Of a DNA stretch of 64,000 bases, positions 3,314 to 40,976 are shown one piece after another; position 1 is the first letter of the stretch; every line of letters starts with the position of its first letter. The position numbers and the translations under genes are program-made. The stretch comes from a virus. The DNA lies in IMG/VR virus record IMGVR_UViG_3300045581_000900, positions 1 to 64,000 of that record; one strand, 5' to 3'. The notes beneath the pieces are model-generated. The model saw nothing but the letters and a program-made list of their open reading frames with translations. It was not told where the DNA came from and searched no databases.

Positions 3314-4228
3314 TCAGCAGTTCCCGGCGATAGACGTCGCCGACAGGTCGATAAAGATAGTGTTCGTTTCCGGGTCGGCTGTAATTTCAACGCCCGTACC
3401 GCCTACGATATTAACGTCTGGCCCCGAGACGCCGTTAATCGCGTTGACAAGCTCATCACAAGCCGGGCCGCCGCTCAAGAACTTGCTACCGGCTGGCGGC
3501 TGTTCGTTGGCGTAGAACGGAATTTCTCCGTATGTCTTGCAGATATCGGCGTCGAACGGCATGCCTAGATTTCGGCCAGCGGAGATGGCGATCTCGCGGG
3601 ACAACTGCCGTTGCCGAATCTGAGCGTTGTAGCCTTCTTTGAAACGAATATCGCCGGTCACACAGCGTTTATTAATGACAACGTAACGGCTGCTGGTATC
3701 CGGCGGGTCACAGGCCGACTGAGCCATTGGTCGGGACAGATTGCCCAGCGAGATGGTCCGTAAATACGTTTTTACGAGACTTTGAATTCGAGCCGGCTCC
3801 AAGATGTAATTTTGCTCTAAAGTCAGGCTGCCGTTGGCCGGCAGGGCTGCTTGAAGCTCTGTCAGCGGCCCGGTGACTAAAAAACCCGACCAGACAGGCT
3901 CGACGGCACAACTGTTAATGTCTTTGACGTACGGGGCCGATTCTGCGTCTTCTGTCAGCCACTCTTCGGCATTTACGTCGCGGCGGAAAATTAGCGGATT
4001 GTTGGCGGCACCGGGAGCATCAGTATCGAACTCGAACTCAAACACGTTATCCACGCGGCGGACGGTTTTCAGCCAGACGGAATGCTGCTGTCCGTCAAAC
4101 TCGCTGTCGAGCCCCATAATAATGCCGCAGTCGACAATGGAGGAATTGGGGAGCGTTGTCACATTCGGTTTAAACACGAACGGATACGCTCGGTATTCGT
4201 TGTCGTTGTAGAATCCGGGACGAGGCAT
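3314..4228 (-). CDS. Tail/baseplate-associated protein, YP[FL]...INGV paralogue family
   Basis: 304 aa; N-terminal FYNDNEYRAYPF, C-terminal VNAINGVSGPDVNI; tightly packed operon. Confidence 0.65.
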   Translation of the reverse strand: MPRPGFYNDNEYRAYPFVFKPNVTTLPNSSIVDCGIIMGLDSEFDGQQHSVWLKTVRRVDNVFEFEFDTDAPGAANNPLIFRRDVNAEEWLTEDAESAPYVKDINSCAVEPVWSGFLVTGPLTELQAALPANGSLTLEQNYILEPARIQSLVKTYLRTISLGNLSRPMAQSACDPPDTSSRYVVINKRCVTGDIRFKEGYNAQIRQRQLSREIAISAGRNLGMPFDADICKTYGEIPFYANEQPPAGSKFLSGGPACDELVNAINGVSGPDVNIVGGTGVEITADPETNTIFIDLSATSIAGNC

Positions 4229-35321: not shown

Positions 35322-36628
35322 ATCCGCCAGAACTCCTCGTCTGGGTCGCCGGCAGGCTTTACGTCGTAAACTACGCCGCTTTCTGGGGTACTAAGAATTT
35401 TATCGTCTTCTGTCTTGAAGAATGACGGGTCACCTTCGGCGTCCGTCTCGCCGAGCGGGAATTGCGGCACATATGTCGGCACTAAGTCTTCTTCTGGCAC
35501 GGTTACAGTCACGGATTTGGTGTCCGGCCCATATTCCCCCGCCTTTTCAAACAGAATAACGTAGTCGCCGGGATCGAGTTTGATAGATCGGGTCCAGCGG
35601 CCGTTCACGCGGGTCGTCGTCTTCGCGACGGCCAAATTACGGTTAACGTTTACGCCGTTTGCGTCAAAGACCGCCTTCCGAAAAATATACACGTCTGCTC
35701 CCACAACACCGCAGCCGTCGGTGAGTGTGTAGGCCAGTTCGTCTAAACCGCCGTAGTCTTGGTCGACCGGTATGTCGCCGCAGCCAGCCATCGGAAGCGT
35801 GGGCCCGGTTCTGACCGACGGCTCGCCACCGATCTCTACTGCATAAATACTGTTGCTGAACGGCATCAGGCCCATACGCACCTGATAGATGACGGGCACG
35901 CCGCGGAGGGCCGCAGCGACCTGAATGCTCTCAACCACCCAGCGTTCGTCCGACGAGCCGTTCACCCAAATGTCATCTTTATTTAATCCGGGGAAGCCAA
36001 TGACTCTGGCTTCGACATACGGGTTTTCGCGGGTAGTGCCTTTCGGCTCTCCGACATCGCTCTGCTCGTTTTGCGGCGACAGGTCCCAGCATTGCATCGG
36101 CTGGGCAGGGTGATATCCCACCTCGAAACCCGTGCCATTACAGACCGGGCAGTTGGCGTCAGTGACTTCGCTCGACATTTCGTCGCGGCAGCGGGGGCAT
36201 GGAACGCCGTACCGCATTGGTTTGATTAAATAGCCGGGTATCGAGACCAGCCGATGCCGCAGTTGTTCTTTGCGGATAATTTCGCGGGACAGCACCCAGT
36301 CGCGTTCTGTTAACTCGCCGAAGACGTTGGCGGCCTGTGAGATGTATACATTCTGCGGCGTGGTGAGCTTGACGCGATAATGCGTCATTAACGTGTAGCC
36401 GGCCTCACGCCACGCCGGGTCTAAAGCGAAATATCCATTCGTGACAGGCTGGCCGACGTCGACCCAGTCAGTCGCGTCCCGAAGCCCCGTCCGGCCAAAT
36501 TGAAGCTGGAAAACGTAGGGGCCGGGCTCTTTAAACAGTTTCTCTAACTGCCACCAGACGCGGGAAACGCCGCGTACCATGTGGTCTACCGATACACGAC
36601 GAAATGGGAAAATACGTGCTTGGCTCAT
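35318..36628 (-). CDS. Putative neck / head-closure protein with Zn-finger
   Basis: 436 aa; CPRC...CPVCNGTGF; position between adaptor and tail terminator. Confidence 0.55.
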   Translation of the reverse strand: MSQARIFPFRRVSVDHMVRGVSRVWWQLEKLFKEPGPYVFQLQFGRTGLRDATDWVDVGQPVTNGYFALDPAWREAGYTLMTHYRVKLTTPQNVYISQAANVFGELTERDWVLSREIIRKEQLRHRLVSIPGYLIKPMRYGVPCPRCRDEMSSEVTDANCPVCNGTGFEVGYHPAQPMQCWDLSPQNEQSDVGEPKGTTRENPYVEARVIGFPGLNKDDIWVNGSSDERWVVESIQVAAALRGVPVIYQVRMGLMPFSNSIYAVEIGGEPSVRTGPTLPMAGCGDIPVDQDYGGLDELAYTLTDGCGVVGADVYIFRKAVFDANGVNVNRNLAVAKTTTRVNGRWTRSIKLDPGDYVILFEKAGEYGPDTKSVTVTVPEEDLVPTYVPQFPLGETDAEGDPSFFKTEDDKILSTPESGVVYDVKPAGDPDEEFWRI

Positions 36629-36644
36629 GGCTTGATTATAGCGG

Positions 36645-36665
36645 GCGGCTGATAGCTAAAAAAAA
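36645..36665. repeat. 21 bp direct repeat, copy 1 (GCGGCTGATAGCTAAAAAAAA)
   Basis: Identical to 40268..40288; partial copy ATAGCTAAAAAAA at 37149..37161. Confidence 0.85.
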
Positions 36666-36697
36666 AACGCTTACGCGTGCGGAGCCGTCGCCTCCGC
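36658..36697 (-). terminator. Probable terminator of the last island cassette
   Basis: GCGGAG/CTCCGC stem and a small ACGC/GCGT stem followed by 10 T on the minus strand. Confidence 0.5.
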
Positions 36698-36717
36698 TGC
36701 CTACAAATTGTCAATGC

Positions 36718-37014
36718 TTAGAACCACCGGTTCAGGCAGTTCTCCAGCATTTTCGCGATTTCCGTGCCGTGGATCACACGTTCCCACGCGATGCCGTATT
36801 CGTGCATGTCGCCGCGAAGGTGTGCCGACTCGGCAATCGTCTCTTCGCACCGCACGCACGTACGAACACAATCCAGCGTCTCGGTGAAGATTCGCTTGAC
36901 TGTTTCGCTGGGGCCGAAATTGCGATGGCACTCCATTGCGTGCGTCTCCATCGCAAAGAGGTCGTTGGCGAAACGCTCTTCAGCCGACCGCTGAGTCTGG
37001 GTCATTGTCGTCAT
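36718..37014 (-). CDS. Hypothetical protein (98 aa), island cassette 3
   Basis: Start moved to ATG 37014 (MTTMTQ), preceded by AAGGAGG; has its own promoter and terminator. Confidence 0.7.
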   Translation of the reverse strand: MTTMTQTQRSAEERFANDLFAMETHAMECHRNFGPSETVKRIFTETLDCVRTCVRCEETIAESAHLRGDMHEYGIAWERVIHGTEIAKMLENCLNRWF

Positions 37015-37110: not shown

Positions 37111-37138
37111 ATATACCCTGTTTTTGTCGGTTATTTAG
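37111..37138 (-). promoter_or_regulatory. Putative phage promoter CTAAATA-N14-GGTATAT
   Basis: One of three copies with identical 14 nt spacing, each upstream of an island gene. Confidence 0.75.
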
Positions 37139-37154
37139 AGCCGCTCGAATAGCT

Positions 37155-37183
37155 AAAAAAAGCCCCCAATGGTCTGGGGGCTT
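37155..37183 (-). terminator. Intrinsic terminator
   Basis: AAGCCCCCA/TGGGGGCTT stem running into T7. Confidence 0.8.
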
Positions 37184-37189
37184 GAGTGA

Positions 37190-37770
37190 AATGTGGGCCG
37201 GTCGGGAAGGCTAGCTTCTTCCCGACCGGCCATCCCCCGTTAACACCTGATTGTCACACACAATCAGTTCACTGTGTTACGGGCTCGTTGTTTACCGGCC
37301 GTGACGGCAACACCACAACGTCGGTCGCCCTAGGGCTGTGGACAGGGGGTACAACGAGAAAACATGCTCGCACAGGATTGGGCCATGCGAGCGTGGCGTA
37401 AATTTAGGCGGCACCCAGATTTACAGTCTCCGAACAATCCCATCAGAGTTTCGGCAACCTACGATCTGGGCAGAAAACAGTTTGTTACTTTCAAAGAACT
37501 TACCGGCGTTTCGGTTTCCCGACGTCCCGGTATTCGGACTCGATTTCACAATAAGGGTGCTGCTGCCAACCACCCCGAGGCTGCCTGTGCCGACAAGACA
37601 CAGGCTTTTTGTCCAAGGGCTTCACCTACGAAAGCCTTTGTTCCGTTCGGACCAGTACCGCCTAAAGCGACGAGCCCCCAGAGCGACGACGGAACAAGCG
37701 TCGCTCCAAGGGCGTATTAAACGTATTCATAGTTAGGGAAAGGGCATCTTCGACCTCCTTTCAGGAGCCG
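37190..37770 (-). ncRNA. Candidate large structured non-coding RNA (~580 nt), family unknown
   Basis: No minus-strand ORF of 60 aa or more; at least 10 helices including a perfect 14 bp stem (37196-37231), a 12 bp long-range stem (37403-37414 with 37655-37666) and a GAAA tetraloop; ends at a terminator. Confidence 0.6.
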
Positions 37771-37776
37771 CCTACG

Positions 37777-39306
37777 TCATTTCATCTTCAGGGCCAAGTC
37801 AAAGCCCCTGAGCATCCGAGACTGGTCAACGCAACCAATCGCCATGCTCAGTTTTTCCATCGCTTCCGGTCTCCAATTTGGAAGCAGATTGGGTACGGTC
37901 GGCTCGGGTCTTCCACTGGATGTCGCCCAGTTATGAAGCCAGAGCACTCGGGTTACAGACCGTAGTTCTGCGATCTCCCCGTAACGGTCGACCGCGTGGT
38001 GGTCGCCAAGCATGACGACAACACGAACCCTGTAACTACTCTCGCCGCGGCACACTTCCTCAAAAAGCCGTTCGGCCTCTCGGGGGCTTGTGGCCGCGGG
38101 CCTCCCGTTAAACCACGGAATGTACTCTTCGCTGGAGTCCACGCCGCCGTTAAAGTGGGGAAGCACCAGCACGTCGGAGCCTGCGACTCCGGCGTAGCCC
38201 GCCGCGTTGGCAAGGTCGCAGGCTGGCTGGGCCTGCTCCGCACAACTCGGCGAGATGTCGGGAAGAAAGAGGACCACCGGGCGGCCGGCGACCGTATCTT
38301 CCTTGAGTGCGTTGGGGAGCGGACGGCGGACAACCATCCGTTTAACCAACTTTGATGCACTCAAGACAGGTACGGGTCCCGTGGTTTCACCCACGGTCCC
38401 GCCATGCTCAACGAGCCGATTGATCAGTTCGGCCATCTGATTCCTCAACTTCTGGGAAACGTTTTGCAGGCGGCCAAGGCCCCGCGAAACTTGTTTCCGA
38501 GCGGTGAGGGAGACGCCGGCTGCTTGGGCTTTCGAGTTATACGAAAGCTTTTTGCGGGCCTGTCCCAATTTACGTTTTGCCGCTTTAACCGCGGCGTCTG
38601 TCCCCGGCTTTTTGCCGTTTTTGGCCGCGGCTTCCAGAGCGTCTTTCAACTCTCTCTTGGCCGCCTCAAGGGCTTTCTGCTGGGGGCTCGGCTGCGGTTT
38701 GGGCGGCGGGGTCGGAGCCGGCGGCGGGGGTGTAGGTTCAGCGTTAGCTTCGCCGTCACCGCCAGACGCAGGACCGGTCGTCTGCGTTTGGCTGGACGGT
38801 TGCGGCTGCCCCTGACCCGACTGCCCCTGCCCCTGCTGACCTTGGCCCTGTTGGCTTTGGCCAGACTGCCCTTGCCCCGGCTGGGCTTGGCTCTGTTGGC
38901 TTTGGCCAGACTGCCCTTGCCCCGGCTGGGCTTGGCTCTGTTGCCCCTGACCCTGCTGGTTCTGGCCCGGCTGGCCCTGCGGCGGTTGCTGCTTGGCCCG
39001 CTCCTGCTCGATAACTTCGAGCAGGTCCGCGTTCGGCCCGTATTCGCGGGCCCAGCGGTCAGCGAGGCGGCGAACATCCGGGACGATGGTGCCAGCCTTT
39101 TTGCACTCGTAGCACTTGCAGGCGTTTAACAGGCCGCCGTCCCGCAAGACGTTAGCCCGACGCCACCGGTTTACGCCGGTGACGAAAGCCCCAAGCCTCC
39201 CGAGAGCGGATTCGACGTCGCTGTCGTACACGCCGCCGAAAGCAATGCCGCGTTCAGCGGCAGAGAAACACTTCTGCAGTTGCCGCAATGTGAGCGACAT
39301 TGCCAA
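37777..39306 (-). CDS. vWA (MIDAS) domain protein with Gln/Gly/Pro low-complexity linker; probable MoxR partner
   Basis: 509 aa; VVLFLPDISPS (DxSxS) and VVVMLGD; adjacent to the AAA ATPase; AAGGAG RBS. Confidence 0.7.
   Translation of the reverse strand: MAMSLTLRQLQKCFSAAERGIAFGGVYDSDVESALGRLGAFVTGVNRWRRANVLRDGGLLNACKCYECKKAGTIVPDVRRLADRWAREYGPNADLLEVIEQERAKQQPPQGQPGQNQQGQGQQSQAQPGQGQSGQSQQSQAQPGQGQSGQSQQGQGQQGQGQSGQGQPQPSSQTQTTGPASGGDGEANAEPTPPPPAPTPPPKPQPSPQQKALEAAKRELKDALEAAAKNGKKPGTDAAVKAAKRKLGQARKKLSYNSKAQAAGVSLTARKQVSRGLGRLQNVSQKLRNQMAELINRLVEHGGTVGETTGPVPVLSASKLVKRMVVRRPLPNALKEDTVAGRPVVLFLPDISPSCAEQAQPACDLANAAGYAGVAGSDVLVLPHFNGGVDSSEEYIPWFNGRPAATSPREAERLFEEVCRGESSYRVRVVVMLGDHHAVDRYGEIAELRSVTRVLWLHNWATSSGRPEPTVPNLLPNWRPEAMEKLSMAIGCVDQSRMLRGFDLALKMK
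38848..38943. repeat. Exact 45 bp tandem duplication (QQSQAQPGQGQSGQS x2)
   Basis: 38848-38892 is identical to 38893-38937. Confidence 0.9.
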
Positions 39307-39371: not shown

Positions 39372-40196
39372 TCATCGGCGTTTGAACTCGCCGTAGAGGA
39401 CGGCCCCGGGAGACTTAACCTCCCGCTCGATGGCCTTTCGGTCCTTATCGGCCTTCACGAGAAAGGCGTCGATCAGGGCTTCGGTGTCCTCGACCGAAGC
39501 GACCAAGTCACGAGCTTTCAGGAGTTCACGCAACTCCTGCAGGCTCGGCTTGGACTCGCCCTTGGTTCGCACGGCGTTAGCCATGCGAACGATGAGGCGA
39601 CACGCCTGCGATGGAGCCCCCGTGCTCTTGCGAAGCACGTCGGTTTCGATGTTCTCCGGCAAGAACTCCATCGTTACCCGGAAGCAGCGACGCTTCACAG
39701 CCTCCGGGATATCGCCCTCCTCGTTTGCCGTGAGGACGACGAACATCCTCTTGAGGTCTGCCTGATGCATGTGATGCCGAGCGTCCGGCACCCGACCATG
39801 CTGCAGGAAATCGAGGATCAGCGGATAGAACCTCGATCCGGCTTTTTCCACCTCGTCGAGGGTCACAACTACGTCGTGGTGCTTCGTGGCCTTAACAGCC
39901 CGGAGAAGCTGACCGTCCATGTAGGCCTCGTCGGCGTGATTAACACCAACGGCGACCTTCCCGATATCCACGCCCTGATTGACCTCTTCATTTGTCAACC
40001 AAGGATGGCAGGGAATGAAATAGTGCATCGCCCCCCTGCCGCGGGCGAAGCAATCGGCGAAGAAGGTCTTGCCGGTGCCGGGCGAACCGACGAGCAGTAC
40101 CGCTCGCATCGTCGCCGTGATCGACGCCAGCCACTTAGCCGCCAAACCCTCACCACGGCGAGCGTGGTAGTTGGGGAGCAATGTTTCAACAGACAT
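39372..40196 (-). CDS. MoxR-like AAA+ ATPase
   Basis: 274 aa; Walker A GSPGTGKT, Walker B VVVTLDEVEK, sensor I LTAN, Arg finger KRRC. Confidence 0.88.
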   Translation of the reverse strand: MSVETLLPNYHARRGEGLAAKWLASITATMRAVLLVGSPGTGKTFFADCFARGRGAMHYFIPCHPWLTNEEVNQGVDIGKVAVGVNHADEAYMDGQLLRAVKATKHHDVVVTLDEVEKAGSRFYPLILDFLQHGRVPDARHHMHQADLKRMFVVLTANEEGDIPEAVKRRCFRVTMEFLPENIETDVLRKSTGAPSQACRLIVRMANAVRTKGESKPSLQELRELLKARDLVASVEDTEALIDAFLVKADKDRKAIEREVKSPGAVLYGEFKRR

Positions 40197-40237: not shown

Positions 40238-40265
40238 ATATGCCGCAATTTGGCCGATTATTTAG
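40238..40265 (-). promoter_or_regulatory. Putative phage promoter CTAAATA-N14-GGCATAT
   Basis: Second copy, upstream of the ATPase. Confidence 0.75.
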
Positions 40266-40267
40266 CC

Positions 40268-40288
40268 GCGGCTGATAGCTAAAAAAAA
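40268..40288. repeat. 21 bp direct repeat, copy 2
   Basis: Identical to 36645..36665. Confidence 0.85.
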
Positions 40289-40319
40289 CGTCACCCGGGC
40301 CGAAGCCGGAGTGACGTTT
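40281..40319 (-). terminator. Intrinsic terminator with C(UUCG)G loop
   Basis: AAACGTCAC...GGC-TTCG-GCC...GTGACG followed by T8. Confidence 0.85.
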
Positions 40320-40355: not shown

Positions 40356-40895
40356 TCAGTTTGCACTGGGCTCCCACTTCCGATGGACCGTTCCGACAGC
40401 CGGCTTGGGCTCGTCGGCCTTCTGCTTCAACTGCTCGGCGAAGGCTTTCACCTTTGCCTTTGCAGCCTCTGCCGCAGCCTCTTCTTCGGCCCGCTCTTTT
40501 TCCATCTTCACGCCGTCTTCGAAAATCTGCTCGGCGATGTACTGTGCGTCGACGGTTTCCATGAAGCTGCTGCAGACAGACTCAAGGAAGTTCATCGAGG
40601 TCGCCATCTCGTCCGCAGCCTTCTTGTGTTCCTCGTCGCCCGTCTCGGCAGCGATTCGCATGAGGGCCACGATCTCGTTCATCGTCGACGCCAGCGAATT
40701 GCCAACGATGCTGGCGATCCAGATAGTCATCGCACCGATCGCTCCGTTGCGGTGCTCCTCGTCCCACTCGGTCTTACCGAGCCGGTCGAGGCCCTTGCGG
40801 CTCGCCGCGTACGGGTGTGCGGACCACGGCAGGTCCGCCGCCTTCTTCCGAAAGTTTTCCAGCGTTTGCTGCGTGGCTGTATTGACCGATTTCAT
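40356..40895 (-). CDS. Hypothetical helical protein (179 aa), island cassette 1
   Basis: Start moved to ATG 40895 (MKSVNTA) with AGGAG RBS; has its own promoter and terminator. Confidence 0.7.
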   Translation of the reverse strand: MKSVNTATQQTLENFRKKAADLPWSAHPYAASRKGLDRLGKTEWDEEHRNGAIGAMTIWIASIVGNSLASTMNEIVALMRIAAETGDEEHKKAADEMATSMNFLESVCSSFMETVDAQYIAEQIFEDGVKMEKERAEEEAAAEAAKAKVKAFAEQLKQKADEPKPAVGTVHRKWEPSAN

Positions 40896-40976
40896 GCCAA
40901 CTCCTACAGGTGGTGGAAATGGCCGCCGCAGACAAACGCCGCGGGGCGGTGCCGAACAGATAAACGGCACTACCTA

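Follow-up and report, generated by a model that had tools for sequence, protein, structure and literature searches.

A large structured RNA, almost certainly of a new family, at the end of a MoxR-vWA gene cassette in uncultivated phages

Apart from rRNA, introns and RNase P, bacteria and phages have very few structured RNAs of more than 500 nt, and OLE, GOLLD, ROOL, HEARO and raiA have each opened new biology or a new RNA architecture. Here, we describe a ~620-nt RNA element on the minus strand of IMG/VR virus record IMGVR_UViG_3300045581_000900, where it directly follows a pair of genes for a MoxR-type AAA+ ATPase and a vWA/MIDAS-like protein (hereafter, together with the RNA, the cassette). 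The stretch of DNA that we analyzed, referred to below as the window, is the first 64 kb of this 111,939-bp record, which is estimated to be ~55% complete.

The closest described RNAs are ROOL and GOLLD, large ornate RNAs of phages and prophages that assemble without protein, as seen by cryogenic electron microscopy (PMC12286853). Like them, the RNA described here is phage-borne, of unknown function and within a size range of 500-800 nt, with many covarying stems and conserved junction nucleotides. However, ROOL and GOLLD are typically free-standing genes that often lie near tRNAs, whereas the RNA described here forms the 3' end of a protein-coding unit with MoxR and vWA genes and a Shine-Dalgarno (SD) sequence that precedes a mini open reading frame (mini-ORF), and the ROOL and GOLLD covariance models do not match it. 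The pRNA of phi29 is likewise a phage-encoded structured RNA, one that serves an ATPase in morphogenesis, and the cassette studied here is located between head and tail genes; pRNA differs in being ~174 nt long, in forming a ring on the connector and in working with an FtsK/HerA-type packaging ATPase, and no Rfam match was found here. A strong SD sequence, a start codon, two to four codons and a stop within a phage transcript are also the hallmarks of lambda bar minigenes and leader mini-ORFs, but the mini-ORF at this locus sits inside a large folded RNA, just past a long-range helix. A motif survey of IMG/VR reported motifs of 29-151 nt only, which may include a piece of the RNA (PMC10690425). 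We found no published account of the RNA itself or of a MoxR-vWA pair linked to an RNA.

With respect to the proteins, the locus resembles the MoxR-vWA pairs NorQ/NorD, CbbQ/CbbO and RavA/ViaA in having a NorQ-like ATPase gene with a vWA gene next to it. Such pairs are also known in jumbo phages and in ATV, where they lie among virion genes (PMC7824862). The described pairs are without an RNA partner, and the vWA protein of the phage pair in PMC7824862 is fused to a peptidase that is absent here. Ro60 with Y RNA, and Rsr with YrlA, offer the precedent of a MIDAS-bearing protein encoded beside a structured noncoding RNA (ncRNA), and the C-terminal domain of the vWA-like protein finds some of its best fold matches in the vWA domains of Rsr and of a TROVE protein. 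Y RNAs are nonetheless ~100-200 nt long with a tRNA-like module, Ro systems have no MoxR partner, and the Rfam Y RNA models gave no match to this RNA. A ribonucleoprotein of the Ro60/Y RNA type was rejected, as Pfam detected no TROVE domain in the vWA-like protein. Midasin (Rea1) combines a dynein-type AAA_5 ATPase with MIDAS modules that act on a large RNA-protein particle, the pre-60S, and provides the top natural fold matches; it is, however, a single giant eukaryotic polypeptide with a ribosome precursor as its substrate, and the likeness is one of analogy alone.

A conserved, strand-specific, noncoding fold behind the vWA-like gene

The DNA between the vWA-like gene and the following transcription unit specifies a conserved, strand-specific, noncoding fold with defined ends that forms one unit with both cassette genes (Table 1). 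It consists of a structured core of ~545 nt followed by terminator hairpins. A first-pass annotation, made from the letters of the window, had remarked on a long gap at this position, and this observation was borne out over the full extent of the element. No conserved or credible ORF lies between the vWA-like gene and the next plausible start codon on the same strand (ATG 37014, behind AGGAGG).

When positions 37140-37780 were folded, the minus strand was more stable than all 20 dinucleotide shuffles (z = -5.75), in agreement with the structure proposed in the first-pass annotation. The plus strand gave a nearly equal value (z = -5.45; 0/20 shuffles as good on either strand), and the z-score alone therefore does not decide the strand. 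The G-U pairs, GNRA loops, SD sequence and terminators all agree on the minus strand, as had been proposed. G-U pairs account for 91 of the 841 paired cells in our alignments, in which pairing is 92.0% when read as the minus strand vs 81.2% for the opposite strand.

To reach a first relative (L003/L013), we used the 436-aa protein encoded downstream of the RNA; the equivalent gap in this relative aligns at 74-81% identity, with blocks of identity, evident compensatory changes and indels. The vWA-like protein has 87 homolog clusters in a large protein collection, and a profile built from 33 of them matched 11 IMG/VR loci and 3 metagenome loci. At every locus with enough flanking sequence, a gap of 580-770 nt follows the vWA gene, and nhmmer detected the RNA in these gaps with E values of 1e-169 to 1e-12; for the two most distant groups, E values were 1e-8 to 1e-15 after the profile was rebuilt. 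The analyses below use 10 distinct sequences: the window, L013, L024, L015, L014, L028, L019, L020, L026 and L017. The RNA is found directly behind the vWA gene in all nine sequences other than the window, two divergent ones matching partially, and it is detected even where identity of the vWA protein falls to 38-52%. Its nucleotide identity to the window is 63-76%, compared with 64-80% for flanking coding DNA, though the RNA encodes nothing.

Comparison of these sequences revealed no conserved reading frame. Indels between the window and its nearest relative (L013) are 4, 1, 4, 8, 2, 2, 1, 3, 3 and 9 nt long, and the longest open frames among the 10 homologs occupy differing places and frames, with no frame conserved on either strand. 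The plus-strand ORFs that the first-pass annotation had flagged as potentially coding are not conserved, given these frame-breaking indels and shifting ORF positions. Indels in the relatives also rule out read-through or extension of the vWA frame into the gap.

To assess covariation, we seeded three covariance models from the window and L013, the two closest sequences, and used them to align the remaining ones, because misalignment cost most of the helices when RNAalifold was applied to plain MAFFT alignments of 5-8 sequences. Over the three models together, changes on both sides were seen in 77 of 114 pairs, and paired cells made up 90-94% vs 31-48% in slid controls. Covariation scores were 4-8 times those of the slid controls, and 0/500 shuffles reached the observed values in all three models (5' part, P2, P4 and P5: 93.8% of cells paired, 26/37 pairs changed on both sides, covariation 0.755, best slid control 0.143; middle part, P6-P8: 92.6%, 28/43, 0.519, 0.103; 3' part, P10-P12: 89.8%, 23/34, 0.313, 0.067). 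The helices covary while junctions and internal loops keep their sequence. Two features of these scores weigh against the interpretation of a conserved fold: they come from 8-10 sequences per alignment (10 overall), aligned by models that favor the modeled structure, and the slid and shuffle controls leave some phylogenetic signal in them.

Rfam 15, whose families include ROOL, GOLLD, OLE, HEARO, raiA, group I and II introns, RNase P, tmRNA, 6S, Y RNA and pRNA, gave no matches in the whole window at gathering thresholds. At E <= 10, the region matched terminator look-alikes alone, at 21 bits or less, and not ROOL, GOLLD or OLE; at E <= 1, the loci of eight homologs gave nothing relevant. The element is larger than 400 nt, has many compensated helices and conserved loop and junction nucleotides, and lacks a conserved reading frame in 10 homologs, features that fit the descriptive class of large structured ("ornate") ncRNAs. 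The central proposal of the first-pass annotation, an unclassified large structured ncRNA on the minus strand behind the MoxR-vWA genes, is thus upheld by the absence of Rfam matches, the heavy covariation in all three models, the fold z-score and the lack of a conserved ORF. We are nearly certain that this is a real conserved structured RNA of a new family, and we infer that it acts as a folded molecule and not as a message.

The contig of the window has a single copy of the RNA, and none of the 11 genomes examined carries it apart from the two genes. In 10/10 distinct sequences, it comes directly after the vWA gene, and a complete relative (G001, 203 kb) has neither the vWA gene nor the RNA; in this genome, the 330-aa and 433-aa genes that flank the cassette abut. 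The link to the ATPase/vWA pair suggested in the first-pass annotation gains circumstantial support from this. In the complete relative (locus L005; 203,206 bp, with terminal repeats), positions 3880-4020 contain the 330-aa gene, 61 nt and the 433-aa gene, with the whole accessory block missing; the junction motif AGCTATCAG, described below, is missing there as well. A 17-mer scan of IMG/VR gave six chance matches, and its sole true match was a relative already known. Two degenerate core patterns, one of them drawn from the conserved P11 block, returned just the contigs already reached via the vWA protein. In GTDB genomes, the first core pattern had no matches. A looser pattern had two, in metagenome-assembled genomes of Archangium and Flavobacteriales, both of which the covariance models reject, and no host or prophage carrying the RNA was found in the GTDB scans.

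Helices, long-range contacts and a mini-ORF within the RNA

Each of the local helices listed in the first-pass annotation exists and is conserved in relatives. Helix 37196-37209/37218-37231 is the first terminator hairpin, 37236-37246/37274-37283 with 37247-37254/37260-37267 is P13/P14, 37284-37291/37351-37358 is P11, 37366-37372/37386-37392 is P10, 37414-37420/37464-37470 belongs to P8, 37583-37589/37599-37605 is P5, and 37681-37688/37699-37706 is part of P2. The tip of P7 (37511-37522) is capped by GAAA in the window and by a GNRA or variable loop among the homologs. The P7 internal loop is invariant in nearly all homologs and is the sole part of the RNA still detected in the most distant ones. 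At the other end of the molecule, P13/P14 and the terminator adopt an identical fold in separate predictions for the 10 sequences; the apical loop of P14 has 7 nt in the window and is a GNRA tetraloop in four homologs. A "P9" helix predicted from two sequences (RNA positions 379-384/516-522) was dropped as inconsistent with P14, because it would fall in this loop.

Table 1. Features of the cassette and its RNA (window coordinates; MFE, minimum free energy)
Feature	Position	Strand	Details
Cassette start	40257..40310	-	terminator hairpin of the upstream unit, T-run, AGCTATCAG, TAAATAAT; likewise in L013
MoxR-type AAA+ ATPase gene, NorQ-like	39372..40196	-	274 aa; Pfam AAA_5, 48.1 bits (cut-off 22)
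vWA/MIDAS-like gene	37777..39306	-	509 aa; small Cys-containing N-domain, Q/G/P-rich linker, basic segment, DxSxS C-domain
Whole RNA element	37155..37776	-	ORF-free; first base past vWA stop codon to end of terminator U-run
P1, 5' strand	37767..37774	-	starts 2 nt past vWA stop codon; pairs with 37405..37412
SD and 4-codon mini-ORF (MPFP)	37733..37758	-	GGAGG 37754-37758; ATG 37745-37747; TAA 37733-37735
P2 hairpin, 15 pairs	37676..37711	-	helix 37681-37688/37699-37706; 95.5% paired; 14/15 pairs changed on both sides
PK1, 5' strand (P2 apical loop)	37690..37697	-	pairs with 37638..37645
PK1, 3' strand	37638..37645	-	linker just before P4
P4 hairpin	37614..37640	-	86% paired; 4 pairs changed on both sides
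P5 hairpin	37583..37605	-	conserved 5-nt loop; 100% paired; 8/9 pairs changed on both sides
P6 hairpin	37554..37576	-	87.5% paired
P7, long four-segment stem	37482..37551	-	helix 3 of middle model: 5/5 pairs changed on both sides
P8, two-segment stem	37414..37470	-	conserved 4x4 internal loop; 5/7 and 8/9 pairs changed on both sides
P1, 3' strand	37405..37412	-	long-range helix closing the ~360-nt 5' domain
P10 hairpin	37366..37392	-	first helix of 3' domain; 9/9 pairs changed on both sides
P11 with inner P11a and P12	37284..37358	-	P11 97% paired; most conserved sequence block of the RNA
P13/P14 stem-loop	37236..37283	-	outer helix, asymmetric loop and inner hairpin in independent MFE folds of 10/10 homologs
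Two terminator hairpins and U-run	37153..37231	-	hairpins 37196-37231 and 37160-37183; U-run 37155-37161
Promoter-like junction of next unit	37125..37154	-	AGCTAT, spacer, TAAATAA; follows the T-run in all homologs

Two long-range contacts are predicted from the alignments. The P1 duplex is present in 7/8 homologs, the exception being L024; the cognate strands pair at -20 to -26 kcal/mol, better than shuffled leaders (fraction <=0.01), and the sequences differ between homologs. P1 takes in the vWA stop codon itself in L013 and L015. The second contact, the pseudoknot PK1, joins the apical loop of P2 to the 16 nt immediately 5' of P4, to which the loop is complementary over 7-9 bp in 8/8 homologs; the pairing covaries, with five sequence versions. 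PK1 replaced a 3-bp "P3" hairpin predicted from two sequences, which is broken in L015, L019 and L024, where PK1 persists. With these contacts, the RNA folds into two domains, one at the 5' end closed by P1 and containing the mini-ORF, P2, P4-P8 and PK1, and one at the 3' end made of P10, P11/P12 and P13/P14.

One long-range helix proposed in the first-pass annotation fared differently. The 12-bp helix 37403-37414/37655-37666 is present in the MFE fold of the window but is not conserved, because its 5' strand lies in a segment that is deleted in L013 and has no equivalent in the other homologs. Its assigned role as the closure of a multibranch domain does not hold, as the conserved 5' partner is the different one that forms P1. 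The segment at 37655-37666 (minus strand) is a window-specific insertion with a second copy of the P1 5'-strand sequence, able to pair with the 3' strand of P1 (-23.6 kcal/mol), and none of the relatives has this alternative to P1. The insertion may have arisen through duplication by chance, or it may be a switch specific to this strain.

Right after the 5' strand of P1, 9/10 homologs share a mini-ORF layout of GGAGG, 6-7 nt, ATG, three or four codons and a stop. The peptide MPFP is kept in four sequences (the window, L013, L015 and L019, one of them distant) with third-position changes only; the other peptides are MFT, MNFT, MTWP, MHWPR and MGTQ, and the residues before the stop are usually F or W and then P or T. 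In this small sample of sequences, the pattern looks to be under selection.

The transcription unit, its proteins and the phage that carries it

In 10/10 homologs, the RNA ends in a GC-rich hairpin followed by 7-8 U, and the hairpin and T-run at 37160-37183 confirm the minus-strand terminator proposed earlier. The sequence of the promoter-like junction that follows recurs at 40257-40288 and 36635-36667. The junctions at 40257-40310, 37125-37183 and 36635-36700 each consist of a terminator hairpin, 7-10 T, AGCTAT(CAG), ~9 nt and a TATAAT-like box; such a junction, with AGCTATCAG and a -10-like box behind the terminator and T-run, is found before the ATPase gene and after the RNA. As no such junction lies between the vWA gene and the RNA, we conclude that the unit runs from promoter through ATPase gene, vWA gene and RNA to terminator. 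The signals seen for synthesis of the RNA are its terminator and the promoter-like junction of the cassette. The repeated junction probably serves as a promoter of the phage lineage itself, in a back-to-back arrangement with terminators. A riboswitch or leader of the downstream gene was rejected, since one or two strong terminators and the promoter-like junction intervene in 10/10 homologs.

The ATPase contains an AAA_5 domain, and its residues 32-258 match NorQ (9qhd_A) over the full length (E = 7.5e-9), which places it in the MoxR class. The assignment of the 509-aa protein is less firm. A DxSxS MIDAS motif (D350, S352, S354) is invariant in 33 homologs, an AlphaFold2 model of the C-terminal domain (predicted local distance difference test, 77.7) has Rea1-MIDAS as its best Foldseek match (E = 5e-3), and a minority of members among its Atlas neighbors carry VWA, CobT_C or CoxE. 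From these data, we assign it as vWA/MIDAS-like with moderate confidence. The ATPase is 82-91% identical among relatives vs 38-62% for the vWA protein, whose low value is mainly due to the Q/G/P-rich linker. This low-complexity linker is encoded at 38500-39000 (minus strand; GC 0.68, AT skew -0.6). A Lys/Arg-rich segment lies just before the MIDAS domain, and a conserved CxCxxC is present in the N-terminal ~100 aa. A PADLOC search for antiphage defense systems gave only weak generic AAA matches for the ATPase (E >= 5e-5) and none for the vWA protein, and NCBIfam and additional Pfam scans of the cassette and neighboring proteins returned nothing informative.

Every long ORF in the window is on the minus strand, and these include genes for sheath-like and capsid-like proteins; the window is therefore the structural region of a ~200-kb phage. 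The capsid protein is 28% identical to proteins of Vibrio and Salmonella jumbo phages, with no close isolate, and the group that carries the RNA is an uncultivated lineage of ~200-kb phages. The cassette lies amid head, neck and tail genes, and the phage also encodes its own RNA polymerase. In IMGVR_UViG_3300032298_001038 (198,312 bp; L016 and L028), the vWA gene runs off one end of the contig and its last ~200 nt, with the RNA, are at the other. This split over both contig ends indicates that the contig is circularly permuted or terminally redundant, and it is probably a complete genome.

Between the RNA and the 436-aa gene, at 36718-37014 (minus strand), an extra one-gene cassette encodes a 98-aa ORF with AGGAGG and its own promoter-like junction and terminator; it is missing from every relative retrieved, and no family matches it. 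The -10-like box at 36626-36640 is separated by just 6 nt from the start codon (ATG) of the 436-aa gene, a spacing that is equal in relatives and suggests, on sequence grounds, that this gene has a leaderless mRNA. Just upstream of the cassette promoter, positions 40356-40970 (minus strand) contain a 204-aa ORF that has a terminator of its own. This ORF is conserved in L013 and missing from the complete relative, and it matches no family.

Possible functions of the RNA

The evidence that ties the RNA to the ATPase/vWA pair is circumstantial, consisting of the shared promoter-to-terminator unit, adjacency in 10/10 sequences and joint absence from the complete relative. We consider it fairly probable that the RNA is co-transcribed with the cassette and functionally tied to it. 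As the best overall explanation, which we hold with evenly balanced confidence, we propose a new large structured ncRNA at the end of a MoxR-vWA cassette, with a ribonucleoprotein as its likeliest mode of action. In this proposal, a phage promoter would give rise to one transcript that carries the MoxR ATPase gene, the vWA gene and, last, the RNA, and that stops at the intrinsic terminator(s). The vWA protein, translated just upstream on the shared transcript, might then bind the RNA, and we point to the basic segment that precedes its MIDAS domain. The MoxR hexamer could act as a motor that remodels or loads the RNA-vWA complex.

That the RNA forms a ribonucleoprotein with the vWA and MoxR proteins specifically is possible, though we lean against it. 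A still more tentative extension, and one we regard as rather unlikely, is a new viral ribonucleoprotein machine in which a large folded RNA, which might be catalytic or form a cage, would be loaded, remodeled or delivered by an AAA_5 and MIDAS pair and perhaps packaged into the virion. Packaging is suggested by the location of the cassette amid genes for the head, neck and tail and by the RNA polymerase that the phage itself encodes. By analogy, such a system would resemble midasin acting on pre-ribosomes or Ro60 with Y RNA.

Several observations weigh against a ribonucleoprotein of this kind. The 509-aa protein has no Pfam family (E <= 0.01) or PDB sequence match. In a VIA comparison, its C-terminal domain matched the Rea1 MIDAS domain with Z 8.0 (root-mean-square deviation 4.3, 171 aligned), a TROVE-protein vWA domain with Z 7.8, MDN1 with 7.2 and Rsr with 6.8, with many vWA domains at Z ~6, but Z <= 8 is in the range of common, unrelated alpha/beta folds. 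Viral MoxR-vWA pairs are presumed to be protein-assembly chaperones and have no RNA partner (PMC7824862). Co-occurrence of the RNA with the two proteins could reflect shared inheritance of one cassette and not shared function, and the joint absence of vWA gene and RNA rests on a single complete genome. In addition, phage isolates searched with the RNA and the vWA protein gave no match, placing the cassette in no cultured phage.

The strongest of the alternatives, which we nevertheless think unlikely, is that the RNA functions independently of the neighboring proteins, either as a self-assembling particle of the ROOL/GOLLD type or as a decoy or scaffold that acts in trans against the host, and shares their promoter for convenience. 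Its size, many stems, pseudoknot, conserved junctions and phage location recall ROOL and GOLLD (PMC12286853), and the contrast between the highly conserved ATPase and the more divergent vWA protein and RNA indicates that the three parts do not evolve in step. On the other hand, the RNA has no similarity to ROOL, GOLLD or OLE models even at the permissive threshold used above, begins at the vWA stop codon without a promoter-like junction of its own, and has stayed with the two genes in every genome in which it was found.

We regard it as distinctly improbable that the RNA is a cis-acting 3' untranslated element that controls the stability, termination or translation of the MoxR-vWA mRNA. P1 could, for example, sense the ribosome at the vWA stop, or the SD sequence and mini-ORF could hold or release ribosomes, or protect the long untranslated tail against Rho or RNases. 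Such a role would fit the position of P1, which abuts or includes the stop codon, the strong SD sequence and 3-4-codon ORF within 30 nt in 9/10 homologs, the restriction to synonymous changes among the four MPFP copies, and the one or two strong terminators at the end. However, a length of ~545 nt, 11 or more helices that covary, the pseudoknot and the invariant internal loops far exceed the needs of known 3' stabilizers or termination signals, and the 3' domain has no obvious tie to translation of the upstream gene.

A ribozyme, whether it excises itself from the mRNA or catalyzes some other reaction, is very unlikely. The large size, the pseudoknot and the strict conservation of unpaired nucleotides, both in the internal loops of P7 and P8 and near P11, are what one would look for in such a molecule, but no Rfam ribozyme or intron matched, and there are no split exons, as a conserved stop lies upstream and a promoter follows. 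To our knowledge, most large conserved bacterial RNAs of unknown function have not been proved catalytic, which also counts against this explanation. A self-splicing intron of group I or II was rejected on the conserved position of the vWA stop, the promoter-like junction behind the RNA and the lack of an intron model match, and the absence of the downstream 98-aa ORF from the nearest relatives likewise counts against an intron. Finally, a DNA-level element (an origin, packaging or recombination site), a decayed gene or chance inverted repeats would account for the similar folding of the plus strand, since inverted repeats are symmetrical in DNA, but this is extremely improbable given 91 G-U pairs that fit one strand, compensatory changes over 10 sequences, a strand-specific terminator and SD sequence, and no remnant of a reading frame.

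In conclusion, we regard the RNA as a real new class of large phage RNA whose possible functions are those we infer above. Its support is unusually clean for so few sequences, as it has defined ends, two long-range contacts and two co-encoded candidate protein partners. If it is cis-acting, it would be the most elaborate phage 3' untranslated element known, with a mini-ORF built in. If instead the RNA is a partner of the proteins encoded beside it, this would be the first MoxR-vWA pair with an RNA, which bears on what viral chaperone pairs act upon.

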